Of a stretch of DNA of 64,000 bases, positions 10,965-45,668 are shown one piece after another; the stretch's first letter is position 1, and every line of letters starts with the position of its first letter. The notes below the pieces were generated by a model. It ran no database searches. It was given only the letters and a program-made list of their open reading frames with translations, and was not told the DNA's origin. Location of the stretch: contig JAZDKA010000034.1 of the NCBI GenBank assembly GCA_043803385.1, positions 10,561 to 74,560 of the forward strand, given 5' to 3'. The DNA comes from Patescibacteria group bacterium (GTDB lineage Bacteria > Patescibacteriota > Minisyncoccia > Moranbacterales > JAKLHP01). Made by a program: the position numbers and the translations under genes.

Positions 10965-11079
10965 TTTTGCTCAAAAGATATTTTTAAACTATAATTAAAT
11001 AAAGCAAGCCTTTTATATAGTTGCAATTTTTGTGTATTGTCGGAAATAATTGCCCACGAATCCGTTCGTGGGAACGGAT

Positions 11080-12333
11080 ATGTCTAAAGAAAATATTATA
11101 GTCGGAATAGATATTGGATCGTCCAATGTAAAAACTGTGATAGCACAGTCTTTTTCCGACGTGGAAGTTCCCAGAATAATAGGTGTGGGAATAGTTCCTT
11201 CTTCTGGAATAAGAAGGGGCGTTATTACTGATTTAGAAGAAGTTGTGAAGAATATAAACGAATCAGTGGAAAAAGCAGAAAGAATGGCTGGGCTCACAGT
11301 TAAAAGTGCTAATGTAAATATTGGAGGGACAGAAATAGGATTCCAGGATTCCAAAGGAGTGATAGCCGTTGGCAAGGCCGACGGAGAAGTAACCGAAGAT
11401 GACCTGGAAAGGGTAATCGTTGAAGCCCAAAATGTCGCTCTACCGCTTAATAAAGAGATAATTTATATTATTCCTAAAAGCTACAGGCTGGATGATCAGG
11501 AAAACATCAACGATCCCTTGGGAATGAAAGGAGTGCGCCTTGAAATGAATGCTTTGATAATAGAATGTTCTTCTAATCAAGTCAAAAATCTTACCAAATG
11601 CGTCCATCAATCAGGAATCGATATAAATGAAATAGTGCTTGAACCTTTGGCGGCGGCCGCGTCAGTTTTGAGTAAGAAACAAAAAGAGCTGGGAGTCGTT
11701 TTAATAAATATCGGAGGAGGAACAACTTCCATAGCAGTTTTTGAAGATGGAGACTTGCTTCACACCGCCGTTCTCCCGGTAGGAGCCGGGCACGTCACTA
11801 ATGATATCGCCATTGGGCTTCGCACCTCTATTGAAGTTGCAGAAAAAGTGAAGATAGAATTCGGAAGCGCTATCCCGGAAGAAATTGATAAAAAAGAAGA
11901 AATAGATTTATCACAAATTGATTCCCAAGAATCGGGGTTTGTTTCACGCCATCATGTCGCGGAAATTATCGAAGCAAGACTCGAAGAAATAGTCGGAATG
12001 GTAAACAAAGAACTCAAGGGCATTGGAAAAGCCGGACTTCTTCCTGCTGGAGCAGTAATTACTGGAGGAGGGGCCAATCTTCCTCAAATTGTTGATCTTG
12101 CAAAAAATATTTTAGGACTTCCAGCCCAAATCGGATTTCCAATAAATCTTGGAGGAATTATGAATAAGGTAGACGATCCTTCTTTTTCAACTGTTATCGG
12201 ACTTGTTATTTGGAATAAAGAACAGAAACTGAATGCGCAGAAGGGGAATAAAGGAGTTTTGGGAGATATTTCAAACACCACCGAAGAAACTGTGAAAAAA
12301 ATGAAAAAATGGATGGAAAAATTTCTGCCGTAA
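11080..12333 (+). CDS. ftsA: Cell division protein FtsA
   Basis: IVGIDIGSSNVKTVIAQ, the actin-like ATPase fold, and GGGTTSIAVFEDG. Confidence 0.9.
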   Translation: MSKENIIVGIDIGSSNVKTVIAQSFSDVEVPRIIGVGIVPSSGIRRGVITDLEEVVKNINESVEKAERMAGLTVKSANVNIGGTEIGFQDSKGVIAVGKADGEVTEDDLERVIVEAQNVALPLNKEIIYIIPKSYRLDDQENINDPLGMKGVRLEMNALIIECSSNQVKNLTKCVHQSGIDINEIVLEPLAAAASVLSKKQKELGVVLINIGGGTTSIAVFEDGDLLHTAVLPVGAGHVTNDIAIGLRTSIEVAEKVKIEFGSAIPEEIDKKEEIDLSQIDSQESGFVSRHHVAEIIEARLEEIVGMVNKELKGIGKAGLLPAGAVITGGGANLPQIVDLAKNILGLPAQIGFPINLGGIMNKVDDPSFSTVIGLVIWNKEQKLNAQKGNKGVLGDISNTTEETVKKMKKWMEKFLP

Positions 12334-12496: not shown

Positions 12497-13705
12497 ATGG
12501 CTGAAATAAAACCAGATATAGAAACCTTTGCAAAAATAAAAGTGATTGGAGTGGGAGGTTCCGGAAACAGCGCGATTAGCCGGATGATAGAATCCAAAAT
12601 AAAAGGGATTGAATTCGTGGCGATCAATACCGATGCCCAGGCTCTTCATCATTCCAAAGCTTCGGAAAAAGTTCATATTGGAAAAAATTTAACCAAGGGA
12701 TTGGGAGCAGGAATGAATCCGGAAATTGGAAGACAAGCGGCTGAAGAAAATAGAGATGAAATTCAAGAAGTTCTAAAAGGTTCTGACATGGTTTTTGTTA
12801 CTTGCGGGCTTGGAGGAGGAACAGGAACAGGCGCGGCTCCAATTGTTGCTGAAACTGCCAAGGAGCTTGGAGCACTGACAGTATCAGTAGTCACGAAACC
12901 GTTTGCCTTCGAAGGAGCACAAAGAAAAGCGATTGCCGAAGAAGGACTCGATAATTTGAAAGACAGAGTTGATTCTCTCATCACAATTCCTAACGACAAA
13001 CTGCTTTCCATAATTGACAGAAAAACAACCTTAATCAGCGCCTTTAGAATTGTTGATGATGTGCTTAGACAAGGCGTTCAGGGAATTTCAGACCTTATTA
13101 CCAAGCCAGGAGTGGTTAATGTTGATTTTGCCGATGTTAGAGCTATTTTAGAAGATAGTGGCTCTGCTCTTATGGGCATCGGGATTGCGAGCGGAGAAAA
13201 TAGGGCAGTTGAAGCAGCCAGGCACGCTATCAGCAGTCCGCTGCTTGAGCTTTCAATTGACGGAGCCAAAGGAGTACTGTTTAATGTTTCCGGGTCAAAC
13301 GACTTAACAATGCTAGAAATCAATGAAGCAGCCAATGTGATTACTGAAAATATTGATCCCAATGCTAAAGTAATTTTCGGAGCTGTGACCGATGACCAAA
13401 TCAGAAAAGGAGATATTCATATTACCGTAATAGCTACCGGTTTCGATACCAATAAAGTAAATGAAACTTCGGAAAAAATTTCCAGAGCTTTCTCCGGAGC
13501 GTCAATTTCCGTAGAAACTAAAAAGAAAGAAGACCACCGCAAAGAAGAAAGAATAACCTTTCCCTCAAAGAAACTTGAAACAAAGATGATTATCGAAGAA
13601 AAAATCCAACCGAGAGGAATTTCTATGAGAGGAGAGACAAACAAGGAAATGGAAGAAGATGAATTGGAAATCCCGGCGTTCATTCGAAGGAAGATGGAAA
13701 AATAG
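12497..13705 (+). CDS. ftsZ: Cell division GTPase FtsZ
   Basis: [14 protein letters not shown], the [14 protein letters not shown] tubulin signature, and NVDFADV. Confidence 0.95.
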
Positions 13706-13862: not shown

Positions 13863-14243
13863 ATGAAAAAAAAGATTGCGTTAATGGTAATAATGGCGGT
13901 TTTTTTTATTTTTTCTGTGTCTGCAATTTTTGCTCAGGTTCAGGTTAAAGGAATGTCATGGGCCGGGTCATCTACTGGGTCGATTCGCAATTCGATCAGG
14001 ACAGAAATCGTGGTAAAAATAGAAGACGTCTCGGCAGAAAGGAATAGGATGACAATATCTTATTCCCGAAAAAGTTTCAGGGAAGACAGAAAAGATATTT
14101 TTGAAGCTGAAATAAGAGGAACGAATCCCCTGAAGTTCAGTTTTGTAAATGCTGAAGGGTACGAGATGACCTGTGAGCTTCAGCCTGATAATAGGCTAAT
14201 GCTCACAGGAGGATTGAGATTTACATATCTCGATCCTCTATAA
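13863..14243 (+). CDS. Hypothetical secreted protein (signal peptide)
   Basis: MKKKIALMVIMAVFFIFSVSAIFAQ has the form of a signal peptide. The RBS is aaaggagg. Confidence 0.55.
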   Translation: MKKKIALMVIMAVFFIFSVSAIFAQVQVKGMSWAGSSTGSIRNSIRTEIVVKIEDVSAERNRMTISYSRKSFREDRKDIFEAEIRGTNPLKFSFVNAEGYEMTCELQPDNRLMLTGGLRFTYLDPL

Positions 14244-14330: not shown

Positions 14331-15431
14331 ATGAAAGAAAAGTTTATTCCTAAAAGTTTTTATCTGCAATGGCACATAACGGAACGATGCAATTGGAGAT
14401 GCAAACATTGCTATCAAGAAAGTTATAAAACGCCAGAGATGAGCCTTGAACAGCTCTATGGCGTTTTAGACCAGTATCTGGCTTTAATAAAGAAGTGGAA
14501 TATTCCGAAAAGCAGAGCTCGAATGTCGTTAACTGGAGGAGAGCCTCTGATAAGATCCGATTTTTTTTCACTCTTAGCCAGAATGCATAAATTCGGCAAT
14601 TTTTTTAACTATACAATTTTGTCAAACGGTTCCCTTATTGACAAAGAAATTATAAAAAAACTTAAATTTCTGGGAGTAAATAATTTTCAAGTTAGCCTGG
14701 AAGGAATGGAAAAAAATAATGATGAAATAAGAGGAAAAGGATCTTTTCTGAAGGTGATAAATTCGATTAAGCTTTTATTGGATAACAAAATTCTAAATAT
14801 CAGAGTTTCTTTAAGCCTGAATAAAAAAAATGCTGGCGATGTTGAAAAATTAGCCGATTTTTTAACACCTATAGCTAAGGGGAAAGGTAATATAACTTTA
14901 GCCGCTCGAAGAATGGTTCCATGGGGAAGCGCTTCCGAAATGAAGGAATTCATTCAGGAGCCGTTAGAATTGAAAAATTTTTATGAAAGCGTCGAGCGGA
15001 TAAATAAAAGAATGACAGAAAAAAAATGTAATGTAAGAGTAGTGGGCGGATGCGAAAACGGCATTTTCAATGGTCTAGTTTCCAATAATTTAATGAGTAT
15101 AAGTCATTGCGGTATTGTTGACGGAAGGTTGATAATCGTTATGCCTAATGGAGACGTCCTTCCCTGCCGCCGTCTTCCTATTAAAGCAGGAAATGTCCTG
15201 AAACAATCGCTGGAGGAAATTTATTATTCCGATTTTATGGAAAAGTTGCGAAGTAAAAATAATAAACATAAACAGTGCAAAAATTGCGATAATTACCAAA
15301 ATTGTTTCGGCGGAGCCCCATGTGTTACCTATGCCTATACTGGAAAAATTAATATTCCTGATGTTCAATGCTGGAGAGCTTATGATAATCTAGAAGAAGT
15401 AAGAAATAATAAATATTCAGAAGAATTATGA
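14331..15431 (+). CDS. Radical SAM enzyme with a C-terminal SPASM domain
   Basis: CNWRCKHC (CxxxCxxC) near the N-terminus. The C-terminus has HCGIVDG...LPCRR and CKNCDNYQNCFGGAPC, which form a SPASM/twitch Cys pattern. Confidence 0.8.
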   Translation: MKEKFIPKSFYLQWHITERCNWRCKHCYQESYKTPEMSLEQLYGVLDQYLALIKKWNIPKSRARMSLTGGEPLIRSDFFSLLARMHKFGNFFNYTILSNGSLIDKEIIKKLKFLGVNNFQVSLEGMEKNNDEIRGKGSFLKVINSIKLLLDNKILNIRVSLSLNKKNAGDVEKLADFLTPIAKGKGNITLAARRMVPWGSASEMKEFIQEPLELKNFYESVERINKRMTEKKCNVRVVGGCENGIFNGLVSNNLMSISHCGIVDGRLIIVMPNGDVLPCRRLPIKAGNVLKQSLEEIYYSDFMEKLRSKNNKHKQCKNCDNYQNCFGGAPCVTYAYTGKINIPDVQCWRAYDNLEEVRNNKYSEEL

Positions 15432-16729
15432 AAATATGTTTTTTTTCTAAATATCCGCCTATTGAAGGAGGAGTTTCCTCTCGAACGTATTGGCTAGCCA
15501 AAGGATTGGGCAAGGCTGGACATGAAATTCACATCGTAACTAATGCTCTTGAAGTTGAGGATGAGTATCGAGAAAAGCTGGATTTTGAGAATCCGGAAGA
15601 GCTGGAAAAGTATCAGCCCCAAAATGTGTTTGTCCATTCCTTAAATTATGGGCCGCCGAAACATATACCATATTCCCAAGAATATTTAGCTCGACTCATT
15701 AATCTGGGTTTGGAAGTTGTCAGGGATTATGATTGCGATGTTATTGATTCATACTATTTTCTTCCCTATGGGTTAGCGGCGATGTTTGTTAAAATTCTTT
15801 CTGGAAAGCCGTTAATCATTCGCCATGCCGGAAGTGACATAACTCGGCTTTTTGGAAATGAGAATTTTCACACTATTTTTTTAGAACTTTTTAAAAATGC
15901 TGATTTTATAATTTCTAACCAAACGGTTAAAAATAGAATATTGGAGAGGCATAGGATAGAAAAGAACAAAATAATCACCGGAAAACTTTGGGGGGTGGAT
16001 AAAAATGAATTTAATCCCGACATAGAGCCGATCAATTTTAGAAAAGAATTTAGCATTGAAATTTCTCCGGAAACGCCAGTCATAACTTATATTGGTAAAT
16101 ATGACAATAATAAAGGAATAAACGAACTTTTGGAAGCTCTCTCTGGCATTGATGACGATTTTTTCCTTCTTCTTTTGGCAGGAGGCTTGCAGAACGAATT
16201 GCTTGAGAAAAAAATTTCTTCCTTTTCTTCGCTAAAAGGAAAGTATCTAATAGCGGGTTTTGTCCCTCCCTGGAAAATTCCGGCTATACTGAAAAGATCA
16301 AATTGCCTCGTTCAGCTGGAGAATAATTTTCCCATTAGTGTTCATATGCCCATACAGCCGCTGGAAGCATTTTCGGTTGGCACTCCTGTTATTTTGAGCA
16401 GTGAAATTTTCAATAAATATGAGGTAAAACTGGGACTCGTTGATCAAAAAAATGTTTTTACTGTCAATCCCCAGGATAAAGAACAACTTCGAAAGAAGTT
16501 GAAATTAATAATAAAAGATAATGATTTACGTCGCGATGTTGGAGAAAAATCGCTGGAAATCATTAGAAAAGATAATTTTGAAAGAGCCATAAAAAATAAT
16601 ATTGAAATTTATGAAACAGCAATTTCCAGGGGATTTCGCCTAAATTTAGTATATGAAGAAGTTTCCAAATCATTTTGGAATTTTTTTGAAGGAAATTTCA
16701 AAAATAAGATCAATAAATGGATAAAATGA
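15428..16729 (+). CDS. Glycosyltransferase family 4 (GT-B fold)
   Basis: KICFFSKYPPIEGGVSSRTYWLAKGLGKAGHEIHIVT at the N-terminus, with an EX7E-like region in the C-terminal half. Overlaps the radical SAM stop by 4 bp (atga). Confidence 0.75.
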   Translation: MKICFFSKYPPIEGGVSSRTYWLAKGLGKAGHEIHIVTNALEVEDEYREKLDFENPEELEKYQPQNVFVHSLNYGPPKHIPYSQEYLARLINLGLEVVRDYDCDVIDSYYFLPYGLAAMFVKILSGKPLIIRHAGSDITRLFGNENFHTIFLELFKNADFIISNQTVKNRILERHRIEKNKIITGKLWGVDKNEFNPDIEPINFRKEFSIEISPETPVITYIGKYDNNKGINELLEALSGIDDDFFLLLLAGGLQNELLEKKISSFSSLKGKYLIAGFVPPWKIPAILKRSNCLVQLENNFPISVHMPIQPLEAFSVGTPVILSSEIFNKYEVKLGLVDQKNVFTVNPQDKEQLRKKLKLIIKDNDLRRDVGEKSLEIIRKDNFERAIKNNIEIYETAISRGFRLNLVYEEVSKSFWNFFEGNFKNKINKWIK

Positions 16730-16763
16730 AGGTGTGCATAACTTTTTTCAATAATTGTCTTTT

Positions 16764-16785
16764 TGTGGTATAATTTTGGTATAAT
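16764..16785 (+). promoter_or_regulatory. Extended -10 promoter (tgtggtataat, then a second tggtataat)
   Basis: The TGnTATAAT motif occurs twice, 20-40 nt upstream of ATG 16804. Confidence 0.4.
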
Positions 16786-16803: not shown

Positions 16804-18111
16804 ATGATAAAATTAAAGTTTATGATTTTTGGAAATAAAAAGAAAATATTTCTTTTTTTGAGCTTTGCTTTATTTTTGCTAGCTGTTCCCTTATTTTTTC
16901 AACAGCTTCTTTCTAAAAAAGAAGCAGATGCCAATACCTTATTTAATAATCCTCAAAAGACTTTTCTCACTAATTACGGAGCTTATATATATGTTTTTAA
17001 TAGCGGAAATAAAACAATTACAAAAATCAGAACTAGCGATAGCAAAGAGATGCTCAAAATTAAATTTGACCCCGAACCTACTACAGTTTTTTATACGTCT
17101 CAATTTCAAAAAATTTACGCTCCTTCTTTTATTGATGGGAACGTAAGTATTTTAAAGCTACCAGGAGATGCTTCCGGCACCAAAACTATTTCTCTCGGCA
17201 AAATGATGCATTTGAAATTCAGGTCATTTTTATTTGATGCGGAAAATAAAAAACTTTTTGTTCTGGCCGAAAATTATGAAGAATCTCCCAATGGAGCTGT
17301 TTTAGTTATTGATTTGGAAAAAGATTCCATATCCAATGTAATCAAGCTAGATAGTAGCATTAGAGCTGACTTTTCCAGCCTTTCAAACGGGAAATTATTC
17401 GTTTACGATCCTTTAAAAAACGAGTTTTTCGTTATTGATTGCGGAAAAGAAGAAGTAAACAAAAAAATACAATTAGAGAGTGATGTCAAAGTAGAAGATT
17501 CCGTAATCTCGAAGCAAGGCAAAGTAATATATTTTTTAGCAGGGGGAAATCTCGTAGCACTAGATGCTGAATCAGGGAATATTATATCAAAACTAAAGGT
17601 TAAATCTGGAGTTAAAAAAATAAGAGCAGATGAAAACTCTGAACTAGTATATGTAGTTAGCTCTAGCGAAGATGAAACTAATGGTTTTTTGACGATGGCA
17701 GTTCCTAATGAAAATAGAATAATTTCAGAAGTTGAAGTTGGAAATAACCCGATCAATCTGTTTATCGGCAAAAATTATGTGTACGTGTTAAATAATGGAA
17801 GCAATTCTATTTCTGTGTTTGATAAAAAAACAAATAGAGTGGTCGGAACCATATCATCGGGAGGGCTTAACCCTATATATATGAATATTGATGAAAGTAA
17901 AGATATAATGTATATATCTAATTTTGCAAATAATACGATAGGAATTGTTGATTTAAATACGCAGAAACTGGTAGGCATTATTCCCGAAAAAGAGAATATT
18001 TTCAAGCAATACTGGTTGTTTATTGCCCTTTTTCTTTCGGCAATTATTTCATTAGTGCTTTTCTTTTTTCTGTCGAGTAGGACCAGCGGAGATAGCGCCT
18101 ATCAAGGTTAA
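16804..18111 (+). CDS. YVTN-family beta-propeller repeat membrane protein (N- and C-terminal TM anchors)
   Basis: Repeated YVxN blades: YIYVFNSGNKTITKI, YVYVLNNGSNSISVFDKKTNRVVGTI and MYISNFANNTIGIVDLNTQKLVGII. A C-terminal hydrophobic helix follows. Confidence 0.7.
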   Translation: MIKLKFMIFGNKKKIFLFLSFALFLLAVPLFFQQLLSKKEADANTLFNNPQKTFLTNYGAYIYVFNSGNKTITKIRTSDSKEMLKIKFDPEPTTVFYTSQFQKIYAPSFIDGNVSILKLPGDASGTKTISLGKMMHLKFRSFLFDAENKKLFVLAENYEESPNGAVLVIDLEKDSISNVIKLDSSIRADFSSLSNGKLFVYDPLKNEFFVIDCGKEEVNKKIQLESDVKVEDSVISKQGKVIYFLAGGNLVALDAESGNIISKLKVKSGVKKIRADENSELVYVVSSSEDETNGFLTMAVPNENRIISEVEVGNNPINLFIGKNYVYVLNNGSNSISVFDKKTNRVVGTISSGGLNPIYMNIDESKDIMYISNFANNTIGIVDLNTQKLVGIIPEKENIFKQYWLFIALFLSAIISLVLFFFLSSRTSGDSAYQG

Positions 18112-18131: not shown

Positions 18132-18449
18132 ATGAGCAAAATCAGGAATAAATATAAAATTAAAAACTTTGTCTTGCTTTGCGCCGTTTTTATTGTGCTG
18201 GGACTTTTTAGCTTTATTTTTAAAAAAACAGGAATTGCAAATAGCAGTCATTTTGTAAAAATAGCCTCAGCAGATATTCCGTCTAGCGGTGGCAGTTGCA
18301 GCAGTTGCAACAGTTGCGGCGGTTGGGGCAGTTGCGGTGGCGGCGGCGGTGCCGGTTGCGGCGGCAGTGCCGGCGGTTGTGGCGGTGCCGGTTGCGGTGG
18401 CGGTTGTGGCGGTTGCGGTTGTGGCGGTTGCGGTGGCGGTTGTGGCTAA
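18132..18449 (+). CDS. Small membrane-anchored protein with a C-terminal Gly/Cys-repeat tail
   Basis: ATG start, a TM helix, then SCSSCNSCGGWGSCGGGGGAGCGGSAGGCGGAGCGGGCGGCGCGGCGGGCG, and a stop directly after the repeat. An alternative frame has no start context. Confidence 0.5.
   Translation: MSKIRNKYKIKNFVLLCAVFIVLGLFSFIFKKTGIANSSHFVKIASADIPSSGGSCSSCNSCGGWGSCGGGGGAGCGGSAGGCGGAGCGGGCGGCGCGGCGGGCG
18286..18449. repeat. GC-rich (about 70% GC) coding microsatellite of degenerate 12-mers (ggyggyggttgy)
   Basis: Read directly from the sequence. It contrasts sharply with the low-GC background. Confidence 0.7.
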
Positions 18450-18497: not shown

Positions 18498-19340
18498 ATG
18501 AAATTTGTATCGAAGAATAGGAAATCGTTGCTAATATATATTCTGTTGCTGGTGTTTGTTTTGTCCAGTTGTTTGTTCGGAAATGATATAAAAAAATTAA
18601 TTTCCGCGAAGATTTTTATAGGAGCAGAATATTATTTTAACGGAGGAAAGTATAATCTGAATAAGGCGGAAAAATTATATAAAATTTCACTCAAAATAAA
18701 CTCGGATATCCCCATAGCCCATTATCAGCTGGGAAGAATCTATTTTTTAGGCGGAAAATTCGACTTAGCGATTGCTGAATTCGACAAAGAACTGAAAAAC
18801 AATCAGGAAAGCAAGCATCCGTATTATATGCGAGGGCTGACAAACGGTTACGCTGGAAATTACGATGAAGCGATTTCTGATTTGCAAAAATATATCGCCT
18901 GGAATCCAAAAACTTGGGCAGGATATAACGATTTGGTTTGGGTATATTTGCTGAAAAAAGATTATCAAAAGGCCGAAGAATCATCCAGAAAAGGCCTGGA
19001 AAACAGTTCAAATAATCCCTGGCTTCTTTCAAACTTAGGCACTGCTCTTTTGAATCAAGAAAAATATCAAGAAGCGAAAGAAAAATTAACTTTGGCCAAA
19101 GATTTTGGAGAAAAACTTACCGCACAAGATTGGTCAAAGACTTACCCGGGAAATGATCCGAGAATTGCCGAATCAGGACTCCGGGATATGAAAGCGGCGA
19201 TTCAGCTCAATATCGCTATTGCTTCCAAACGGATGAACCGGAAAGAAGAAGCCAAAAAAGAATATGAAGAATATCTAGCTATGCTTCCGGAAGATGATAA
19301 CAGAAGGGTATCAGTAGATTATTTTTTGTTAATGCCGTAG
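18498..19340 (+). CDS. TPR-repeat lipoprotein
   Basis: Lipobox-like LLVFVLSSC followed by several TPR-like 34-residue repeats (AHYQLGRIYFLGGKFDLAIAEFDKEL...). Confidence 0.7.
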   Translation: MKFVSKNRKSLLIYILLLVFVLSSCLFGNDIKKLISAKIFIGAEYYFNGGKYNLNKAEKLYKISLKINSDIPIAHYQLGRIYFLGGKFDLAIAEFDKELKNNQESKHPYYMRGLTNGYAGNYDEAISDLQKYIAWNPKTWAGYNDLVWVYLLKKDYQKAEESSRKGLENSSNNPWLLSNLGTALLNQEKYQEAKEKLTLAKDFGEKLTAQDWSKTYPGNDPRIAESGLRDMKAAIQLNIAIASKRMNRKEEAKKEYEEYLAMLPEDDNRRVSVDYFLLMP

Positions 19341-19343
19341 ATT

Positions 19344-20495
19344 ATGAAAAAAAATAAAAAAATATCAATAATATCTTCATCCATCTTTTTAATAATGTTG
19401 TTTTCAATGGCCCTTTTCTTTTTATGGTTTCACGGTGTTGGAAATAACAGTCCTTTTTCAGTTGAAGCGAAACTTTTTTCCTTTTCCGGCATTCAAAATG
19501 GCGCTCCTCTTTCCGCTTCCTGCGACGCCGCGCCTCCTTACGAACATACTCCAGGAGAATTCGACAATCCAACGATCACTGTTGCTAAATTAGGTGTCGG
19601 GGCAGGAAGCATAACTGTGTGCAATGATTCTATGAATTGTAAAATTACAGGTTGCGCAGGTATATGCTCTGCAACCTATGGTCGGGGAGAAAATATTATG
19701 GTCGGCAGAAGCCCTATCTATCCTCCAACCGTTTTTTCCGGATGGGGAGGAGATTGCAGTGGCCAACTATGCAATTTGACGATGGATTATTGCAATAAAT
19801 ATGTGACAGGTACGTTTGATCTTAATTATACTCTTTATGTTGCCAAGGCAGGAACAGGCTCTGGTACTATAACTTCAAATCCAGTGGGGATAAATTGCGG
19901 AGCGGATTGCACGGAGTCGTATGTGGATGGAACATCAACAGTTCTTACTGCCGTTGTCGATACCGGTTCAACTTTTGCGGGTTGGAGTGGAGATTGCAGC
20001 GGGACTGACTTATGCAATTTAACGATGGATAATACCAAATCAGTTACGGCTACTTTTAATTCTAATAATCCAACGCTCACTGTTAAAAAAACTGGAACCG
20101 GAACAGTAACTTCGGATCCAACTGGAATCAATTGCGGTACCACTTGTTCTGCAACTTACCCTCTCAATACTTCCGTAACGCTTACCGCTAATCCGCTAAC
20201 GGGAGTATTCAGCGGAGGGTGGTGTAATTATGGTAATGGTGTTGGTACTTGCAACGTTGGCATGAGCAGATCAAAAGAAGTTACGGCTACTTTTAGCAGC
20301 AGTTGTGGGGTATTTTCATGTGTTAAAATAAATTCTGTTTGCAATGGATGCGGAGGTACAGCGACAGGAACAGCAATATGTATTGATTCTTGTAATAATG
20401 TTGATTCTTCAAAATGTAGCAACTGTTCTCCTGAAACGATTAACTGCTCCGCTTGCTCTAATTCTGACGCTAACTGGAAAGAAGTAGCGCCGTAA
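19344..20495 (+). CDS. Cys-rich surface protein, paralog 1 (3 divergent InlB-B-like repeats, ends NWKEVAP)
   Basis: Signal/TM N-terminus. Repeats of the form AKAGTGSGTITSNPVGINCGADC..Y..GT..LTA....GSTFAGWSGDCSG...C.LTM....VTATF. A Cys-rich C-terminal module. Confidence 0.8.
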   Translation: MKKNKKISIISSSIFLIMLFSMALFFLWFHGVGNNSPFSVEAKLFSFSGIQNGAPLSASCDAAPPYEHTPGEFDNPTITVAKLGVGAGSITVCNDSMNCKITGCAGICSATYGRGENIMVGRSPIYPPTVFSGWGGDCSGQLCNLTMDYCNKYVTGTFDLNYTLYVAKAGTGSGTITSNPVGINCGADCTESYVDGTSTVLTAVVDTGSTFAGWSGDCSGTDLCNLTMDNTKSVTATFNSNNPTLTVKKTGTGTVTSDPTGINCGTTCSATYPLNTSVTLTANPLTGVFSGGWCNYGNGVGTCNVGMSRSKEVTATFSSSCGVFSCVKINSVCNGCGGTATGTAICIDSCNNVDSSKCSNCSPETINCSACSNSDANWKEVAP

Positions 20496-20532
20496 AATGA
20501 CAGTTGACAGTTGACAGTTAACATTTGACAGC

Positions 20533-20561
20533 CAGTCCCGATTTGTCGGGACTGGTTTTTC
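20533..20561 (+). terminator. Rho-independent terminator
   Basis: ccagtcccgatttgtcgggactgg (a 10-bp stem) followed by ttttt. Confidence 0.7.
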
Positions 20562-20594
20562 GTTATCTGCAGGTCATTCAGTTTTAATTTCTTT

Positions 20595-20605
20595 TGTGGT
20601 ATAAT
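20595..20605 (+). promoter_or_regulatory. Extended -10 promoter element tgtggtataat
   Basis: Lies 43 nt upstream of ATG 20648. The same 11-mer recurs upstream of several other genes. Confidence 0.45.
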
Positions 20606-20647
20606 AAAACTAGTAAAAAAGTTAACTTGATAGGGGAAATAAAAAAA

Positions 20648-23600
20648 ATGAAAATGAAATTAATAAGGGTTGCTTTAATTGCCATTTTTATTTTTGCTAT
20701 CTTGCCATTTTCTGTTAAAGCTCAAAATTTGACAACCAGTGAAACTGTTTCTAATTCAACCAGATCCGGATTTGAAACTAGAGGTGGAATGATTATTTCT
20801 CAAGAAGCAAACAAACTAAAAATTCTCTTCGGGGCAATTAATAATGAAGAAGTAATTCAACCAGGAGTTCAATATTCGATTCAATTAATTCATAAAGAAT
20901 ATGGATATCTCGTTGATGAGAAAGTTTTTCCGGAAGTGATTAGCATCGGCAAAAAAGAGAAAATATCTAAAGAAATAGAATATCAGGCACCGGAATTTCT
21001 TAATGGAGATTACTTAATTTTTATCGTTTTCAGGAACTCCAAGGCCAATATATTGGGTACGGATATAATTGGAAAAGTTTCCCTAAAAGGAAGTGAGGGA
21101 TATGTCAATATAAACACATGTTTATTGTCAGTTAAAGACGATAAAATTAAAAACGAATTTTTTCCAAATGGATACCCAATTAATGCTGGAATCGATCTTG
21201 CTCCAGAAGAGGAATTAATCGCCAAATGTAAAATTTCAAATAATTTTAGCGAAGCGGTTGAGTTCACTCCTCAATTTGAGAATTATTTTCGTTCAATATT
21301 CGGAACTCTGATTTCCACCGAGAAACAAAGTTCTGTCAATATCAATGCCGGAGAGACAAGAGAAGTTTCCTTTACTGTTCCAAAAATTTCCAAACCCCAA
21401 GCCTATGATGCGGTATTATCCCTTTTTAATAATGGAGAAATTATTTCCAATAAAATCGTTTTTCATTATGTCATTCAAGGATTTTCCGGGACTATTCAAA
21501 ACTTGCTTTCCGATGAAGCTACCTATCAAAAAGGAGAAACGGCCAAAATTTCTTTCTATTTGACCGGATCGGCTGATTATTTTCCGGGTGCCAGGGGCCA
21601 AGGATCTCGCTTGGAAGGCGGAGTGATGGAAATTTCAATAAGCAATAAAGATGGGTCAAAATGTTCCGAAACGGTCCAAAAACAGTTGACGTCAATTAAA
21701 GAATTAACCAATCAAAAGCAAGGTTTAGAAGTTCCAATTATTGCGGATTGTTCTCTTCCGCAAATAAAAGCGGAATTTAAGGATCGCAACGGCAACGTGC
21801 TGGATCGAGCTACTTATAATATTTTTAGTAATGATGCGGAGAAGAAAGAACTTGAAAAAGAAAAAAGCGCCGAGAAAAAAATGAATAAATGGATTTTAAT
21901 TTCTGGTTTGATATTGATTATTTTGTTAATCTCCGTTTTAGCTTATCTTTTTTATAAAAAAAAATCTGAAAATAAAAGCATAGCGACACTTATTGGTATA
22001 TTAGCAGCAACAGGAGTTTTCTTTCTTTGGGGAGGTGTTTCTTATGGAGCCAGTGTAAATTTCTCCGCACCCGCCTTAAATGAAGACTGGTCATCTATAC
22101 CCGTTACAGGATTTCTGGGAACAGAAGGGGGTATATATGGGGAAGATGAAGTAATATTTAGTCCCGGGCAAGAATTTCTAATAGGTGCTAAAGAAGCATA
22201 TACTCTGGTATGTTCTAATAGTGAAGTAGTAAGAGCTCATGTCAACGCAACCGTATTGGATTCAAACAATACAGTGATAAGTGAAAAAAAGTCATTCCTC
22301 CCAAATATAGTATATTATTCAGATGGATCACCGTGGTATTTATATATATCATTTCATTGGTATAATGCACCGATGATTCCAGGTAGTTACAAAGTTGAGT
22401 TTGAAGCTTATGAAGCATTGAGTAATGTAGGAGTTGCATATTTAAATTTTAAAGTTATGGCTCCCAATCCAATTTTAGCGGTCAATAAAGCCGGAACCGG
22501 TTCAGGAACTATAACCTCCGATCCGGCGGGAATAAATTGCGGAACGGATTGTGCAGAATCTTATGTACAGGGAACATCGGCAACTCTTACCGCCACTCCC
22601 GATGCCAATTCAACCTTTGCTGGTTGGAGCGGAGATTGTACGGGAACTGGCCCATGCAATTTGACAATGAATACTAATAAATCAGTGACGGCTAATTTTA
22701 AAATCAATACTCCGCCTACGGCTGAAGCCGGAGGACCATATGCGGTTCCGCGCAATGGCACGGTTACAATTGATGGATCTCAATCTTCCGATCCGGATGA
22801 AATATTAAGCAATTTAGCTTTTAATTGGGATTGTAATAAATGTATTAATGGTGGAGGAAATAATGGTAATTGCCCAGGATACGCGAATATGAGATACGTT
22901 GGCTTTAAGAGTTTTACTTTTAATCCTAATGCAAATTTCAATACCGGATACAATGCTAAAGCCGGCAATGTTTTCACCTGTACCCTAACTGTAACAGACA
23001 ATAAAGGTGCTACGAGTACTGATACGGCCACAATTACTGCTACTGAAACAGCACCCAATGCTCCTACTGGTTTAACTGCCACTGCTCCTTCCTGTTCTAG
23101 TGTTACTCTTACTTGGGTCGATACTTCCGACAATGAAACCGGGTTTAAAATAGAACGCTCCGCTAATTCTAATGGTCCCTGGACTCAGATTGCCACCACG
23201 GCTGCTAATGCTACTTCCGCTGACACTATTGCGGCTGCTACCACCCAATATTACTATCGAGTAAGAGCCACAAATTTAATTGCTGATTCGGATAATACAA
23301 ATGTTGCCGGAGCTTATGTGCCAGCTTGTACTAATGTAAATCTTAGTCTTTACACATCTAGCTGCAGACAATCAGTTCTTTATATAAGTTCAAATTATGA
23401 GTTTGACTATTATACAATACGTAAATGGTATTATAGCAGCTGGTGGGGTTGGTATTATAATGGTCAATATAATCTATGGACTAATCGGAGCGATCATCTT
23501 TATAAATATTATGATAATAATGTTTCGTCGGGTTCTTTTTATGGTTATCAAGTATATGGTTGCTATAATTCTGGTCAATGCCCTTCTGCTTCCCTGTTTT

Positions 23601-25141
23601 ATTGGATTTATATCCCATCATGTCCCGCTCTCAATCTTTCAATCAGCCCGTCAGCTGTTGCTTGCGGGGCATCGTCTGGCGGTGCTTCTAGCTTAACCTG
23701 GAGTTCTACGAATGCCAACTATTGCATTCCTAGTGGCACTAACTGGCCGGGAAATCCTGCCCAGCTTCCAACTTCTTCAAATTTAGCTCCTTTAGTAAAT
23801 AAAACTATAATTTCTCCTACTTCTTCTCAAACTTATAGTTTGACATGCTATGGTGCTGGCGGATCAATTACTAAAAGTGTTAATCTTGGCTGCTCCTGTA
23901 CGGCAAATAACTGTGCTGATAATATATGTGGAAATGAGCAGTGTTATAATGGTTGCATTTGGGTTTGGGGTAATATGCCTGTCCGTTCTCTCTCTATAAC
24001 CAAAGCCGGTACCGGCTCCGGCACCGTTACCGGTAGTCCGGCTGGCTGTAGTTCTGCTGGCATCAACTGCGGTCCTACTTGTTCGGCAACGTACAAATAC
24101 GATACTGCTGTCAATTTAACTGCTACTGCTTTCACTGGCTCTGAATTTACTAACTGGTCAAATGCTTGCAACGGTACCGCTAATTCTTGCACAGTTTTCA
24201 TGAGAAATAATTATTCAGTAAATGCTAACTTTAATGCCAAAACCCTTAATGTTTCTTTAACTGCTTCTCCGCCTTCCGGCAGTCAGCCTTTAACTTCCAC
24301 TCTAACGGCTAATGTTTCTGGCACGTCCGTTGGAACGATTAATTACAAATTTTACTGCAACCGCAATGACGATGGCACTAATATTACTCAACCAGTTGAT
24401 GGAAAATTTGACGGTGAATCAGCCACCAGCAAATCGTTCAATTGTACTTATTCAACCCCCGGCGCTTTCTTTCCAAAAGTTATTGTGGAGCGGGATAGTG
24501 GTGTGCCAAATGCAACTGATAAAAAAACAGTGACGGTTGCTGCAATTCTTTCCATTGACAAAACCGGTACTGGCTCCGGCTCCAGCACAGTTATCAGCAT
24601 TCCGCCTGGCATCAATTGCGGTCCTACTTGTTCGGCTTCATATAATTACAATACCCTCATTGCTTTAACCGCCACTGCCATTCCTTCTACTGATTTTGCT
24701 TTTGCCGGCTGGTCAGGAGCTTGCTCGGGCACTGGTCCCTGTACGGTTACTATGAATGAAGCCAAATATGTGACCGCTAATTTTGGTTGCGAAATTAATG
24801 ATTGTCCGCCTGGATCGGTCAGCTGTAGCGGAAACAGTAGGGTAGTTTGTTCTGAAGTTCCTGTGGGAAGTGGGTGTTATAGAAATATAACAATAGATTG
24901 TGGAATAGAAACATGTGTTGATGGATCATGTCTTCCGAAACAACCAGGAGTATGTGGTGATGCGCAAGACATAATTTGGGACAAATCACCCAATAGTGAA
25001 TTTTGCAATTCATTCGGAGGATATACGGAACCAATCAGGGAAGGTGAAAGTTGGTGCTGGACATGCATTGGAATGCTTGGCGGGTCAGATACGGAATGTT
25101 GCGCGCAGAGAGATTTGAATTGGAAGGAAATAGCGCCGTAG
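20648..25141 (+). CDS. Giant Cys-rich surface protein, paralog 2 (ends NWKEIAP)
   Basis: Signal peptide and an N-terminal domain of about 400 aa that is paralogous to the one in 25822-28605. A TM hairpin follows, then four divergent InlB-B-like repeats, a PKD-like segment, an FN3-like segment and a Tyr/Trp-rich stretch. Ends with a Cys-rich C-terminal module. The start was moved to ATG 20648 (MKMKLIRV). Confidence 0.8.
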   Translation: MKMKLIRVALIAIFIFAILPFSVKAQNLTTSETVSNSTRSGFETRGGMIISQEANKLKILFGAINNEEVIQPGVQYSIQLIHKEYGYLVDEKVFPEVISIGKKEKISKEIEYQAPEFLNGDYLIFIVFRNSKANILGTDIIGKVSLKGSEGYVNINTCLLSVKDDKIKNEFFPNGYPINAGIDLAPEEELIAKCKISNNFSEAVEFTPQFENYFRSIFGTLISTEKQSSVNINAGETREVSFTVPKISKPQAYDAVLSLFNNGEIISNKIVFHYVIQGFSGTIQNLLSDEATYQKGETAKISFYLTGSADYFPGARGQGSRLEGGVMEISISNKDGSKCSETVQKQLTSIKELTNQKQGLEVPIIADCSLPQIKAEFKDRNGNVLDRATYNIFSNDAEKKELEKEKSAEKKMNKWILISGLILIILLISVLAYLFYKKKSENKSIATLIGILAATGVFFLWGGVSYGASVNFSAPALNEDWSSIPVTGFLGTEGGIYGEDEVIFSPGQEFLIGAKEAYTLVCSNSEVVRAHVNATVLDSNNTVISEKKSFLPNIVYYSDGSPWYLYISFHWYNAPMIPGSYKVEFEAYEALSNVGVAYLNFKVMAPNPILAVNKAGTGSGTITSDPAGINCGTDCAESYVQGTSATLTATPDANSTFAGWSGDCTGTGPCNLTMNTNKSVTANFKINTPPTAEAGGPYAVPRNGTVTIDGSQSSDPDEILSNLAFNWDCNKCINGGGNNGNCPGYANMRYVGFKSFTFNPNANFNTGYNAKAGNVFTCTLTVTDNKGATSTDTATITATETAPNAPTGLTATAPSCSSVTLTWVDTSDNETGFKIERSANSNGPWTQIATTAANATSADTIAAATTQYYYRVRATNLIADSDNTNVAGAYVPACTNVNLSLYTSSCRQSVLYISSNYEFDYYTIRKWYYSSWWGWYYNGQYNLWTNRSDHLYKYYDNNVSSGSFYGYQVYGCYNSGQCPSASLFYWIYIPSCPALNLSISPSAVACGASSGGASSLTWSSTNANYCIPSGTNWPGNPAQLPTSSNLAPLVNKTIISPTSSQTYSLTCYGAGGSITKSVNLGCSCTANNCADNICGNEQCYNGCIWVWGNMPVRSLSITKAGTGSGTVTGSPAGCSSAGINCGPTCSATYKYDTAVNLTATAFTGSEFTNWSNACNGTANSCTVFMRNNYSVNANFNAKTLNVSLTASPPSGSQPLTSTLTANVSGTSVGTINYKFYCNRNDDGTNITQPVDGKFDGESATSKSFNCTYSTPGAFFPKVIVERDSGVPNATDKKTVTVAAILSIDKTGTGSGSSTVISIPPGINCGPTCSASYNYNTLIALTATAIPSTDFAFAGWSGACSGTGPCTVTMNEAKYVTANFGCEINDCPPGSVSCSGNSRVVCSEVPVGSGCYRNITIDCGIETCVDGSCLPKQPGVCGDAQDIIWDKSPNSEFCNSFGGYTEPIREGESWCWTCIGMLGGSDTECCAQRDLNWKEIAP

Positions 25142-25694: not shown

Positions 25695-25768
25695 GGCAAA
25701 GCAATATCAACTTTTCAAAACCGGGCTTTAGGAATTTCCAAAGCTCGGCTTTAGTTATAATGACAAAT

Positions 25769-25779
25769 TGTGGTATGAT
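25769..25779 (+). promoter_or_regulatory. Extended -10-like element tgtggtatgat
   Basis: A variant of the recurrent tgtggtataat motif. tataat also occurs at 25756-25761. Confidence 0.35.
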
Positions 25780-25821
25780 AAAGTTGTCAAGAAGTTAACT
25801 CGACTGGGGGAAAATAAAAAA

Positions 25822-28605
25822 ATGAAAACAAAATTAAAATTAATAACGCTAATTGGCGTCGGAATTTTTTGCTTTGCGTTTGCGGTTAATGCTCAGACAC
25901 CAGGACCATTATTGCAGGAAGGTTTTCTTGTCGCTACGGTCAACATCTACAACGCCGCTTTAGCCAGTCAGTCGTCTGACGGATTGCATATTGTTTTTGA
26001 CTTAAGTAATCGCGTTAATGTTCAGCCACAAGTTAAATATGCAGTGAATCTAGCGAAAGAAGAAAAAGACAGTCAGATAATTATTGATACAAAAATCTAT
26101 CCGGAAGAAATTTCTCTCAAAGAAAATGAAACTATCAATAAAAAAATTACCTATGTTCCGCCGGCTTTCTTAAGCGGCGACTACAAACTTTATATTGAAG
26201 CTAAAAATCCCGAAGGTCTCATTTTGGCTATGGCTTATATTGGAGACGTTCAGCTAAATGGAAATAATCAGGGTCTTTTTCTTGATCCAGCCGCTTGCCA
26301 TCTTACTTTGGAAGGAGACGAGACTCAAAAAAAATATACCTTGCAGGGGGTGGATGTAAAACCGGAAGAAAATATTTTGCTTAATTGCGAAGTGGAGAAC
26401 AAATTTAATTCTTCCATAACAGTTATTCCTAATGTTGCCACTTACTACCGTAGCGTCTTTGGTAAATTCCTCGGCGCCAAAGATTTTGAGTCTATCACTC
26501 TTAATAAAGGCGAAAAGACAGTTAAATCTTTTGTCCTGCCCAAAGCCGTTGACCCTCAATCTTACGACGCTGTCCTTACTTTTTACAACGAACGAAAACA
26601 GCTCATTTCCAATCAAATTATCGCTCATTATATAATTCAAGGACCCAGCGCCACCATTCAAAATGTTCTTTTGGACAAAGCGGTTTATCAAAAAGGGGAA
26701 ATTGCTAAACTCTTTTTTTACTACACCCAGTCGGACAGCAATTTTCCTGGTTCCCGCAGTGGCATTACAGATATAGGTGTTCTGACTGCTAGTATTAATC
26801 TTAAAAATCAAAATAATCAAAACTGCGCCGATCTATTTCAAAAAGAATTAACCGAAAAAGAAAGTTTTTTTAACTTTGGCATACCCATTATTAATACTTG
26901 TCAGAGTCCTCAAGCCGAAGTGGTTATTAAAGGCAAAGACAGCCGGGTATTGGCCCAAAATACTTTTAAATTTTTCAATGAAGAAAAAAAAGAATCCGAG
27001 ACCGGCGGCAAAACAGCCGCCAACAAGCAGGCGATGATCATTATTTTAATAGTTATTATTTTAATCGCTATTGTTGCAACTTACTTTATCAAGAAAAAAT
27101 TAAATAAATCCAATAATTTCAGTTTATTTATTTTTCTCTTTATGTTTTTGGTTATCGCAGGAATGTTTACGGGCGAAATAGCAAAAGCAGACACATATGC
27201 TGCTGGTTATGGCATTACAGTTAATTACGGCTTAAACAAAAAGGTGTATTCCCCCGGGGAAACTATGTCTTATTATCTTTCTGCCTCTAGACCCGCTATT
27301 ATGTGGAATGCTACAGCTTCAATGAATGGCGTTACGCGAAGTGGCAATTATGGTGGATATGGTACAAATACTACTATTTATCTCTCTTTTACTGCTCCGA
27401 ATAACTCAGGTAATAATTTGGTCTCTTCTTCCGCTGCTATTTGGGCTCAGTGTGATTGGTTTCTCTACTGCTCCTATACCGTTCAACTTCCAGCTCTTTC
27501 TTCTAGCGTTCTTGGTGACGGCGTTTGTGGTTCTTCTAATGGTGGAAATTCAGGCGTTGCTCCAACTGTTAATCTTTGTAGCGCAGGGGCTGCTTCGGCT
27601 GTATCCGGCTCTGGTCCCTGGACTTGGACCTGTACTGGATCTCCTGGGTACTCAATCGCTACTTGCGGAACTAATCTTTTAACCCGAACTCTTACCGTCA
27701 ACAAAACTGGCACTGGCTCGGGTACTGTCACTAGCACTCCTGCGGGCATCAACTGCGGTTCTGATTGTTCAGCTTCATATAATGACGGTACTTCCGTTAC
27801 TTTAACCGCCACTCCTTCGGAGGGTTCTACTTTTACTGGATGGTTAGGCGCTTGTTCGGGCACTGGCGCCTGCACGGTTAAGATGATTGCGGCTAGATCT
27901 GTAACCGCTACTTTTAAGAGTTATAATTTAACTGTCACTAAAACCGGCACCGGCTCTGGCACAGTTACTCCTTCAACTGGAACTTTAACTTGGTCCGGTA
28001 AAAGCGGTTCAGCTTCGTATTATTACAACACTCCCATTACTTTAACCGCTGCATCTGACACCGGCTCTACCTTTACCGGCTGGTCAGGTACAGGCATTAA
28101 ATGTCCTGGCACCGGTGATTGTACGGTTATCATGACTGTATCTAGGTCTGTGAGAGCTAATTTTAATATTAATACTTATTTTTTAACCGTTACCAAAAAT
28201 GGTACCGGTTCGGGTACTGTTAGAAGTAATTGGTGGGGCATTAATTGTGGTTTTACTTGTTCGGCAAAATATAATTACAATACCTCTGTCACTTTAACCG
28301 CCACGGCTGCTGCTGGTTATACTTTCACCGGTTGGTCAGGAGATTGTTCTGGCAATAGTGCTTGCGTGGTAACTATGGATGCGGCTAAATTTGTAACAGC
28401 TACATTTAATTCTTCCTGCATTCCGAATTCTGCTTGCATCTCGATAACTCCTGATTGTTCAACTAATTGCGGCAAGTCGGTAAGTTCTCAAACATGCATA
28501 GATCTAAATAATTGTGGAACTAGCTTTTCTTGCAGTCCTCCTTGTAGTGGAACGACAACCTGTCCCGCTTGCTCTGACACTAACTGGAAAGAAGTGGCGC
28601 CGTAA
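25822..28605 (+). CDS. Giant Cys-rich surface protein, paralog 3 (ends NWKEVAP)
   Basis: Signal peptide and the paralogous N-terminal domain. A TM hairpin follows, then four divergent InlB-B-like repeats and a Cys-rich C-terminal module. The start was moved to ATG 25822 (MKTKLKL). Confidence 0.8.
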   Translation: MKTKLKLITLIGVGIFCFAFAVNAQTPGPLLQEGFLVATVNIYNAALASQSSDGLHIVFDLSNRVNVQPQVKYAVNLAKEEKDSQIIIDTKIYPEEISLKENETINKKITYVPPAFLSGDYKLYIEAKNPEGLILAMAYIGDVQLNGNNQGLFLDPAACHLTLEGDETQKKYTLQGVDVKPEENILLNCEVENKFNSSITVIPNVATYYRSVFGKFLGAKDFESITLNKGEKTVKSFVLPKAVDPQSYDAVLTFYNERKQLISNQIIAHYIIQGPSATIQNVLLDKAVYQKGEIAKLFFYYTQSDSNFPGSRSGITDIGVLTASINLKNQNNQNCADLFQKELTEKESFFNFGIPIINTCQSPQAEVVIKGKDSRVLAQNTFKFFNEEKKESETGGKTAANKQAMIIILIVIILIAIVATYFIKKKLNKSNNFSLFIFLFMFLVIAGMFTGEIAKADTYAAGYGITVNYGLNKKVYSPGETMSYYLSASRPAIMWNATASMNGVTRSGNYGGYGTNTTIYLSFTAPNNSGNNLVSSSAAIWAQCDWFLYCSYTVQLPALSSSVLGDGVCGSSNGGNSGVAPTVNLCSAGAASAVSGSGPWTWTCTGSPGYSIATCGTNLLTRTLTVNKTGTGSGTVTSTPAGINCGSDCSASYNDGTSVTLTATPSEGSTFTGWLGACSGTGACTVKMIAARSVTATFKSYNLTVTKTGTGSGTVTPSTGTLTWSGKSGSASYYYNTPITLTAASDTGSTFTGWSGTGIKCPGTGDCTVIMTVSRSVRANFNINTYFLTVTKNGTGSGTVRSNWWGINCGFTCSAKYNYNTSVTLTATAAAGYTFTGWSGDCSGNSACVVTMDAAKFVTATFNSSCIPNSACISITPDCSTNCGKSVSSQTCIDLNNCGTSFSCSPPCSGTTTCPACSDTNWKEVAP

Positions 28606-31727: not shown

Positions 31728-31840
31728 ATTTCTAATTATTCTAATTGACCTAATTAACCTAAAAAAATTCCAATGAATTAATTTCTAAATTTGGGATTTG
31801 GGATTTGATTAGAAATTAGAAATTAGAAATTAGAAATTTC

Positions 31841-45643: not shown

Positions 45644-45668
45644 AGTTAAATTTTTTAAATATAAAAAA

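Follow-up and report, generated by a model that had tools for sequence, protein, structure and literature searches.

A putative membrane-anchored precursor peptide with a Gly/Cys-rich tail in a Patescibacteria genome

The His-Xaa-Ser (HXS) repeat proteins HxsA3 and HxsA4 are predicted targets of radical S-adenosylmethionine (rSAM) enzymes, and rSAM enzymes with a SPASM domain are capable of thioether formation from cysteine. Experiments have shown that an exported HxS-repeat effector matures in an rSAM-dependent way (PMC13128918). Of two further enzymes, the rSAM/SPASM protein SbtM forms a thiooxazole from Cys (PMC11002830), and the rSAM protein TvgB modifies a core in which TVGG is repeated (PMC9062424). 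Gly- and Cys-rich cores are also an established precursor type among the thiazole/oxazole-modified peptides (TOMMs), as in microcin B17 McbA (PMC6395948) and the anabaenasin group (PMC4603692), and in TOMM systems a leader motif of the form Fxxx[L/I/V] is required for synthetase binding (PMC6395948). Here we describe a gene for a 105-residue protein with a Gly/Cys-rich tail, located at positions 18132-18449 (+) of a 64-kb stretch of DNA from a Patescibacteria group bacterium (the whole stretch is called the window below) and annotated at NCBI as a hypothetical protein (V1804_02945). The genomes of Patescibacteria (Candidate Phyla Radiation) are tiny and these bacteria rely on host-cell contact, and to our knowledge almost nothing is known about the chemical modification of their surface molecules. 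The product of this locus is best described as a putative Gly/Cys-rich modified-peptide precursor with an unusual membrane-anchoring leader, present in Patescibacteria and possibly served by a different enzyme class. Our literature searches on the ACGX system, and on Patescibacteria combined with cysteine-rich proteins and radical SAM, returned nothing useful.

The peptide, its homolog and their genomic contexts

The open reading frame (ORF) at 18132-18449 starts with ATG and runs through the C-terminus ...SCSSCNSCGGWGSCGGGGGAGCGGSAGGCGGAGCGGGCGGCGCGGCGGGCG to a stop codon, exactly as a first-pass annotation of this DNA, made from the sequence alone, had proposed. It is supported by the ORF listing, a database self-match, codon log-likelihood and the homolog P0004, which is described below. 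The protein opens with a Lys/Arg-rich segment (residues 1-12, MSKIRNKYKIKN; 18132..18167, +), probably cytoplasmic according to the positive-inside rule, followed by a single transmembrane (TM) helix or signal anchor (residues 13-30, FVLLCAVFIVLGLFSFIF; 18168..18221, +). The helix, which the first reading had recognized, averages 2.99 on the Kyte-Doolittle hydropathy scale across its 18 residues and is flanked by five positive charges before and three after, so that the same rule would place the N-terminus inside and the C-terminus outside the cell. A linker comes next (residues 31-50, for example FVKIASADIPSSGG; 18222..18281, +), which is conserved in P0004 and ends in SS-x-F...A-x-A-D-[IV]-P. 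The end of this linker is a candidate leader/core boundary or recognition motif and may serve in cleavage or recognition. Cleavage by canonical signal peptidase I at the conserved A-x-A was considered and judged unlikely, because the site lies too far (17-21 residues) past the TM helix.

The remainder of the protein (residues 48-105; 18273..18446, +) is a Gly/Cys/Ser tail, the putative modified core, with 30 Gly, 12 Cys and 8 Ser, nearly all in NGY codons. The number of thiols is lower than the figure of about 17 first given for the tail, with 12 Cys in its 58 residues and 13 in the whole protein. Most of the Cys and Ser residues of the tail (12 and 8 in 58) are preceded by Gly, a core composition as in TOMM precursors, and the spacing from Cys to Cys is irregular, ranging from 2 to 8 residues. 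The peptide matched no family in Pfam, NCBIfam (even at E <= 10) or PADLOC, and in Pfam and NCBIfam this includes every metallothionein or other metal-binding family.

An exhaustive HMMER search of 1.84 billion cluster representatives, through which the result covers about 15 billion proteins, revealed one credible homolog, the 92-residue protein P0004 (E 9e-5), which comes from an independent Logan assembly. Without their tails, the two proteins align at the N-terminus with a Smith-Waterman score of 81, against 23.2 +/- 4.4 for shuffled sequences (z = 13.2), and the relationship can be followed in the N-terminal segment alone (z = 4.7) as well as in the linker alone (z = 6.9). In this alignment (A1), both proteins share YKIKN before the TM helix and SS-x-F...A-x-A-D-[IV]-P-[SA]-SS-GG after it. 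The tails, as measured from A-x-A, differ in length (58 residues in the window peptide vs 36 in P0004), and the Cys spacing is not kept between them. A third HMMER match, P0005, turned out to be spurious, being driven by the TM segment and a Gly run. When the full-length peptide was compared with 5.8 billion protein clusters, a search in which low-complexity words swamp the candidates, the query stood alone among the matches listed; a profile of the leader (A2) found no third member in these 5.8 billion clusters and nothing in the JGI metagenome contigs. Judged from these searches, the peptide family is extremely rare, with two members.

P0004 is encoded in a locus of 2.7 kb (L002), in which a C-terminal fragment of SagD/YcaO (positions 294-377 of the 377 in model TIGR03604, E 6e-11, ending in PHPFP) is followed by a SagB dehydrogenase (TIGR03605, 131.6 bits vs a cut-off of 78.4) and then, 129 bp downstream, by P0004 itself. 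By its gene content this is the hallmark layout of a TOMM cluster, with the precursor directly after the enzymes. The linker of P0004 contains FAIDV, which matches Fxxx[L/I/V], and at the aligned position the window peptide has HFVKI (FxxI or HxxxI), so that the motif is partly kept.

In the window, a gene for a possible modifying enzyme lies at 14331..15431 (+), 2.7 kb 5' of the peptide gene, as the first-pass annotation had noted. It encodes an rSAM/SPASM protein (Pfam Radical_SAM and SPASM), a candidate maturase whose best NCBIfam matches are the ACGX-system rSAM TIGR04340 (154 bits, cut-off 400) and SbtM (144 bits, cut-off 350). An alignment-based scan of JGI metagenome contigs provided 52 loci with relatives of this enzyme, mostly 35-48% identical, along with a few weaker or partial ones. 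At least 16 of the 52 encode a protein of the HxsA3/HxsA4 type, mostly directly 3' of the rSAM gene, with a leader KKxIxxFLxxEEGxISKK, a TM helix, AH(S/N)SYF and a tail of (His-Xaa-Ser)n or (SCHS)n ending in a Cys motif. NCBIfam cut-offs were passed for HxsA4 (71.5 and 74.7 bits, cut-off 55) and HxsA3 (68.2 bits, cut-off 65).

A neighbour-joining tree placed the window rSAM outside the HxsA-adjoining subclade, in a subclade linked to glycosyltransferases of family 4 (GT4) together with the enzymes of loci L004, L003 and L051. For all four members of this subclade, the gene array of the rSAM also encodes a TM-anchored low-complexity protein rich in Cys. In L004, whose rSAM is the closest to that of the window (48% identity), a Cys/Gly/Thr-rich TM-anchored protein of at least 222 residues (1876-2541, reaching the contig end) is encoded 3 nt past the rSAM stop and contains CSSCGGCGTSCGGCGW, the window counterpart being CSSCNSCGGWGSCGG. 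In L003 and L051, a TM-anchored (SCHS)n peptide is encoded 3.9 kb upstream of the window-type rSAM, in the same array. The pairing of rSAM with GT4 occurs in seven loci (L003, L025, L032, L033, L036, L037 and L051). Neither YcaO nor SagB was found in any of the 52 rSAM loci, and the corresponding rSAM search of genome contigs returned a single locus (L001, 45% identity), which has no Gly/Cys ORF nearby. The gene architecture, the homology between the window peptide and P0004 and the two genomic contexts are established.

Some further features of the related loci were recorded. The (S-C-H-S)n variants that end in CSCTCAT are encoded at 5716-6090 in L003, 3124-3498 in L051, 3094-3453 in L024 and 3501-3830 in L026, and these peptides show a weak match (E 6.5e-4) to the Cys-Xaa-Xaa-Xaa repeat family TIGR04117. 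In L003 and L051, the (SCHS)n gene is followed by an apparent M20-type peptidase, judged by eye, and by two GT4 genes. Long HxsA4-like proteins of 458-575 residues are encoded in L013 (8145-9518), L018 (2860-4584), L021 (5419-6861), L022 (11136-12707) and L031 (3795-5513); they consist of HxS repeats, SC-x-x-CPF and then a conserved globular C-terminal domain of ~330 residues (WNGxxFxxENNILP...EFEQEHSYF...).

Set beside the described systems, the window peptide resembles McbA and other Gly/Cys-rich TOMM precursors in a core made almost entirely of Gly, Ser and Cys, and its family resembles TOMMs, or linear peptides that contain azol(in)es (LAPs), in the position of P0004 directly after the SagD/YcaO and SagB genes. 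Unlike P0004, the window copy has no YcaO or SagB gene within 64 kb. McbA differs from it in having a soluble leader of 26 residues, whereas the leader of the window peptide includes a strongly hydrophobic TM helix; the window tail has about 12 Cys and few Ser, and there is no sequence homology between the two, so that the resemblance is compositional only. With HxsA3 and HxsA4 (NF038309 and NF038313), the window peptide shares a Lys-rich N-terminus, a TM helix, a short linker and a low-complexity tail ending in Cys, and the rSAM/SPASM enzymes that adjoin those proteins are 38-48% identical to the window rSAM. Its tail, however, has no His and hence no HXS repeats, it matches neither NF038309 nor NF038313, and its leader is not homologous to theirs (hhalign probability 1.4%). 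The window also differs from the HXS system in its enzymes, with one rSAM and a GT4 instead of two rSAMs and a small protein, and its rSAM, of the same broad clade and 2.7 kb upstream, belongs to the GT4-linked and not to the HxsA-adjoining subclade.

The ACGX system provides the top NCBIfam family for the window rSAM, and with its targets and those of TIGR04117 the window shares the concept of an rSAM/SPASM enzyme acting on short Cys-containing repeats. Even so, the 154 bits of the window rSAM stand against a cut-off of 400, the tail lacks a regular ACGX or CXXX period and the peptide matches neither family. SbtM, which forms a thio(seleno)oxazole from Cys or Sec and is the second-best NCBIfam match of the window rSAM at 144 bits, offers a precedent for an azole-type heterocycle made from Cys by an rSAM enzyme without YcaO (PMC11002830), but the window enzyme, known from its sequence alone, falls below the cut-off of 350 and has no selenocysteine context. 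Bacterial metallothioneins are likewise small and Cys-rich; the window peptide differs from them in its membrane anchor, its low-complexity Gly matrix, the absence of a defined Cys/His cluster fold and the absence of a family match.

The GC-rich tract and its reading frame

The DNA that encodes the tail had been described as a microsatellite of ~70% GC, built of 12-mers, in a low-GC genome. The composition agrees with this description, since positions 18286-18446, with base counts of G 84, T 37, C 32 and A 8, reach a GC content of 0.72-0.75 in 120-nt windows. This level is found nowhere else in the 64 kb, which averages 0.374 (standard deviation 0.068). The repeat structure agrees only in part. 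Tandem Repeats Finder detected a degenerate period of 12 (70% matches) and another of 36 (82% matches), whereas the longest perfect self-matches were 20 bp at lag 15 (2.3 copies), 10 bp at lag 12 and 8 bp at lag 3. The tract contains no long perfect tandem array of a short unit, by which a slippage contingency microsatellite would be recognized; it is cryptically simple sequence and no clean microsatellite. The suggestion that tail length is hypervariable by slippage is unsupported because such a perfect array is lacking. A slow turnover of repeats over evolutionary time, on the other hand, fits the tail lengths of 58 and 36 residues and the exclusive use of GGY for Gly in both homologs.

All 30 Gly codons of the window tail are GGT or GGC, in a genome where 53% of Gly codons are GGA and 13% are GGG, and P0004 shows the same bias (13 of 13 GGY, vs 59% GGA in the neighbouring genes). 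As Ser is mostly AGY and Cys is TGY, the tract is effectively (NGY)n. This codon pattern is compatible with repeats that turn over in the course of evolution, through duplication or slippage, and the GGY-only use of Gly may also reflect selection against GGA-GGN, which resembles a Shine-Dalgarno sequence, and against frameshift-prone GGG runs; it is no demonstration of contingency-type hypervariability. The RNA of the tract folds into an imperfect long hairpin (fold z-score -2.87) and a scan of Rfam gave no match to it. Two secondary GC-rich spots of the window (0.57-0.64) lie in a PilX-like pilin gene (56371-56500) and in a gene for a GatA-like amidase (60301-60480), and neither is an RNA gene according to ARAGORN and Rfam.

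The tract is nearly free of A, and none of its six frames contains a stop codon. That one of them is open is therefore no evidence of coding, because low A keeps every frame open by composition. The frame is fixed by the ATG and TM segment upstream, by codon statistics and by P0004. Over the first 51 codons, which are not repetitive, the log-likelihood is -189.2 for the ATG frame vs -202.4 and -204.4 for the other two, and a change of the reading offset shifts the preferred frame in the expected manner. The frame of the conserved N-terminus continues, in both homologs, into the Gly/Ser/Cys tail and meets a stop at the tract end; since the Gly/Cys frame is common to both, the alternative that an Ala/Val-rich frame is the conserved one, which the first-pass annotation had named as a refuting outcome, is ruled out. 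The occurrence of P0004 in an independent assembly also argues against an assembly artefact. The ribosome binding site initially assigned to the gene was not recovered, as no Shine-Dalgarno motif is present 5' of the ATG, which is normal here because just 1 of the 18 window genes inspected carries one. Taken with the codon and homolog evidence, 18132-18449 looks like a real gene in the right frame.

Possible modification of the tail and alternative explanations

We favour, at about even odds, the interpretation that the gene encodes an anchored or exported precursor akin to peptides that are made on ribosomes and modified after translation (RiPPs), in which the Cys-rich tail becomes modified. 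It is favoured because two independent contexts adjoin the same architecture, YcaO and SagB at P0004 and the rSAM/SPASM subclade at the window. A RiPP-like core had been one of several suggestions made at the outset, and it has gained comparative support from the position of P0004 beside YcaO and SagB, from the four-member rSAM subclade and from the presence of HxsA3/HxsA4 in the wider clade. The topology of the peptide, the modification of its tail at all, the acting enzyme and the chemistry are matters that we infer from these comparisons. About 47 N-terminal residues, comprising the Lys-rich stretch, the TM helix and the conserved linker ending in A-x-A, would act as anchor and leader, while the 58-residue Gly/Cys/Ser tail would be the core, modified at Cys and possibly Ser in the cytoplasm, before or during export. 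The end product would be a modified peptide either tethered to the surface or released from it. For P0004, a YcaO cyclodehydratase and a SagB dehydrogenase would do the work, giving thiazoles or oxazoles as in microcin B17. For the window peptide, we tentatively propose the rSAM/SPASM enzyme of the same array, perhaps together with the coupled GT4, as a possible modifying enzyme that we would not hold with confidence; it is more likely to act here than an azole-forming system encoded elsewhere.

Several observations weigh against this interpretation. The rSAM gene is 2.7 kb away from the peptide gene, with two genes in between, and a promoter-like site (TG-TATAAT, a TG-extended -10) at 16745-16774, between the GT4 and beta-propeller genes, means that the peptide may be transcribed apart from the rSAM. 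Pfam scans of ~40 ORFs and tblastn with the enzymes of L002 detected neither YcaO nor SagB in the 64-kb window, and no RiPP recognition element (RRE) or PqqD-type recognition domain was seen. A TM helix inside a RiPP leader is atypical, and a family of two members puts conservation of context beyond statistical assessment. Among the related loci, homology of the Cys-rich protein of L004 to the window proteins was rejected, as the similarity vanishes under composition-based statistics and is compositional only, and the (SCHS)n peptide of L003 and L051 directly adjoins a different rSAM pair and not the window-type rSAM. No such Cys-rich peptide was found in L032, L033, L036 and L037, which form a sister GT4-linked clade, so that the rSAM-GT4 module may have another substrate. 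Finally, homology between the window-type leader and that of HxsA3/4 was also rejected, a custom leader hidden Markov model giving E 5.7 in addition to the low hhalign probability mentioned above.

The tail might instead stay unmodified and act through free surface thiols, by binding metals or metal sulfides in the manner of a metallothionein or as a disulfide/redox anchor to the neighbouring Cys-rich surface modules, roles that had also been among the first suggestions. Such a role, which we consider rather unlikely but worth keeping in view, would suit a 58-residue tail whose 12 Cys are separated by flexible Gly, the N-in/C-out topology predicted from the sequence, the probable co-transcription with surface proteins that have Cys-rich C-termini and the lack of a modifying enzyme directly adjoining the peptide gene. 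It would also suit the presence of the anaerobic ribonucleotide reductase NrdD with NrdG, given that the extracellular thiols of an anaerobe would stay reduced. Against it, the peptide matches no metallothionein or metal-binding family, and the gene for its sole homolog comes straight after YcaO and SagB, the place where a modification substrate is encoded. Such tails occur together with maturases in related rSAM loci, and the Cys spacing varies from 2 to 8 residues and is not kept between the two homologs. An unmodified tail would still be an unusual thiol-rich surface element of an anaerobe. The same position of P0004, together with a composition like that of microcin B17 and the FxxxV of its linker, which is of the Fxxx[L/I/V] leader-binding type, could mean that the window peptide is a true TOMM/LAP precursor whose YcaO, SagB and E1-like enzymes are encoded outside the window. 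The rSAM-GT4 pair would then serve another substrate, for instance a glycan or the surface proteins' Cys-rich modules, in keeping with its occurrence without the peptide in L032, L033, L036 and L037. RiPP genes normally cluster, however, and 64 kb without YcaO or SagB, along with the only partial retention of the FxxxB motif in the window protein (HFVKI), make this explanation unlikely.

It is very improbable, in our view, that no functional protein is made and that the ORF is a by-product of a stop-free GC-rich simple repeat acting, if at all, at the DNA or RNA level, for instance as a hairpin or contingency tract. The A-poor composition that opens all six frames, the strong departure from genome codon usage (0 of 30 Gly codons being GGA or GGG), the RNA fold z-score of -2.87 and the missing Shine-Dalgarno site could all be accommodated in this way. 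What speaks for a protein is the retention of the 50 non-repetitive N-terminal residues in an independent assembly (z = 13.2) and the preference of the codon statistics for the ATG frame; the tract, moreover, matches nothing in Rfam and contains no perfect tandem array, and most genes of the window lack a Shine-Dalgarno site as well.

If the interpretation as a modified precursor is right, the reach of RiPP-type chemistry would go beyond secreted antibiotics and take in structures anchored to the cell surface. The peptide would also supply a short, concrete and testable substrate for the rSAM/SPASM-GT4 module, which is uncharacterised although many metagenomes contain it, and tie this module to the HXS model of rSAM enzymes maturing an exported repeat protein. 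A more far-reaching proposal, to be taken as a speculation with little chance of proving correct, is that one TM-anchored Gly/Cys-tail family is served by two unrelated Cys-modifying systems (YcaO with SagB, and rSAM/SPASM with or without GT4) in different Patescibacteria-like lineages, the rSAM installing azole-like heterocycles or thioether crosslinks on a surface-tethered poly-Gly/Cys chain. If true, this would define a new class of membrane-anchored, heavily modified surface RiPPs in epibiotic bacteria of ultra-small size. They might play a part at the contact with the host or, by analogy with the HXS system, in anti-phage gatekeeping.

Gene array and other features of the window

The peptide gene stands in a co-directional array on the + strand that includes FtsA (11050-12333), FtsZ (12497-13705) and a secreted protein of 126 residues (13863-14243), followed by closely spaced genes from the rSAM gene to that of a 383-residue surface protein. 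The GT4 glycosyltransferase gene (15428..16729, +) has a start that overlaps the rSAM stop by 4 bp, and a YVTN-type beta-propeller with TM segments at both ends (16804..18111, +) comes after it, the peptide gene starting 20 bp after the propeller stop. An N-terminally anchored TPR protein (18498..19340, +) is encoded 48 bp 3' of the peptide gene, next to the 383-residue surface protein (19344..20495, +), which has an InlB-B-repeat (Flg_new_2) domain and, at its C-terminus, a Cys-rich module and the ending NWKEVAP, so that the peptide gene does lie just upstream of a surface-protein cluster, as originally described. This surface-protein gene is the last one before an intrinsic-terminator-like hairpin (20530..20557, +) with a 12-bp stem and a T run, the sole such site on the + strand between 13600 and 20700, which probably marks the end of the transcription unit. 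From this arrangement, the peptide gene is most likely co-transcribed with the propeller, TPR and 383-residue surface-protein genes, and the rSAM-GT4 pair may, though not with certainty, be transcribed into it by read-through. Genes for NrdR and for the class III ribonucleotide reductase proteins NrdD and NrdG come after the cluster; the presence of NrdD and NrdG points to an anaerobe, and anaerobic life suits rSAM chemistry.

Used as a query for syntenic loci, the propeller matched itself and one unrelated kinase, with no close relatives in the databases. Kinship among the TPR proteins encoded 3' of the peptide genes in the window, L041 and L002 was rejected, the similarity being weak and generic to TPR, with none in L002, and the window TPR protein has a weak, generic similarity to the anchored TPR proteins of some HxsA loci. 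A PADLOC scan gave nothing specific.

Three InlB-B-repeat surface proteins (19344-20495, 20594-25141 and 25768-28605) share a Cys-rich module and a C-terminal NWKE[VI]AP directly followed by the stop (20475-20495, 25121-25141 and 28585-28605). This motif, absent from the 53 other loci that were fetched, has the look of a conserved C-terminal tag for sorting or processing. For the 1515- and 945-residue ORFs, the listed TTG starts (20592-20605 and 25766-25779) sit in the near-identical sequences TTGTGGTATAAT and TTGTGGTATGAT, which resemble TG-extended -10 promoters and are followed by conserved leaders. The likelier starts are probably ATG codons, MKMKL... near 20650 and MKTKL... near 25822, which would make the proteins about 18 residues shorter than listed.

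Short tandem repeats were found at two other sites. A (GACAGTT)3 repeat with a degenerate continuation (20498-20526) lies between the stop of the 383-residue gene and the terminator hairpin, and a perfect (AGAAATT)4 repeat (31811-31840) lies directly 5' of the GTG start of the NrdG-like activase gene. Just past a tRNA-Ser gene, an ORF of 398 residues (38794-39990) has no Pfam match. A full type IV pilus set occupies 44438-56604, with PilM, PilO, a PilB-like ATPase, a PilT-like ATPase, PilC, a prepilin peptidase and pilins, and after it comes an IS200-like Y1 transposase gene (56676-57377) on the minus strand.

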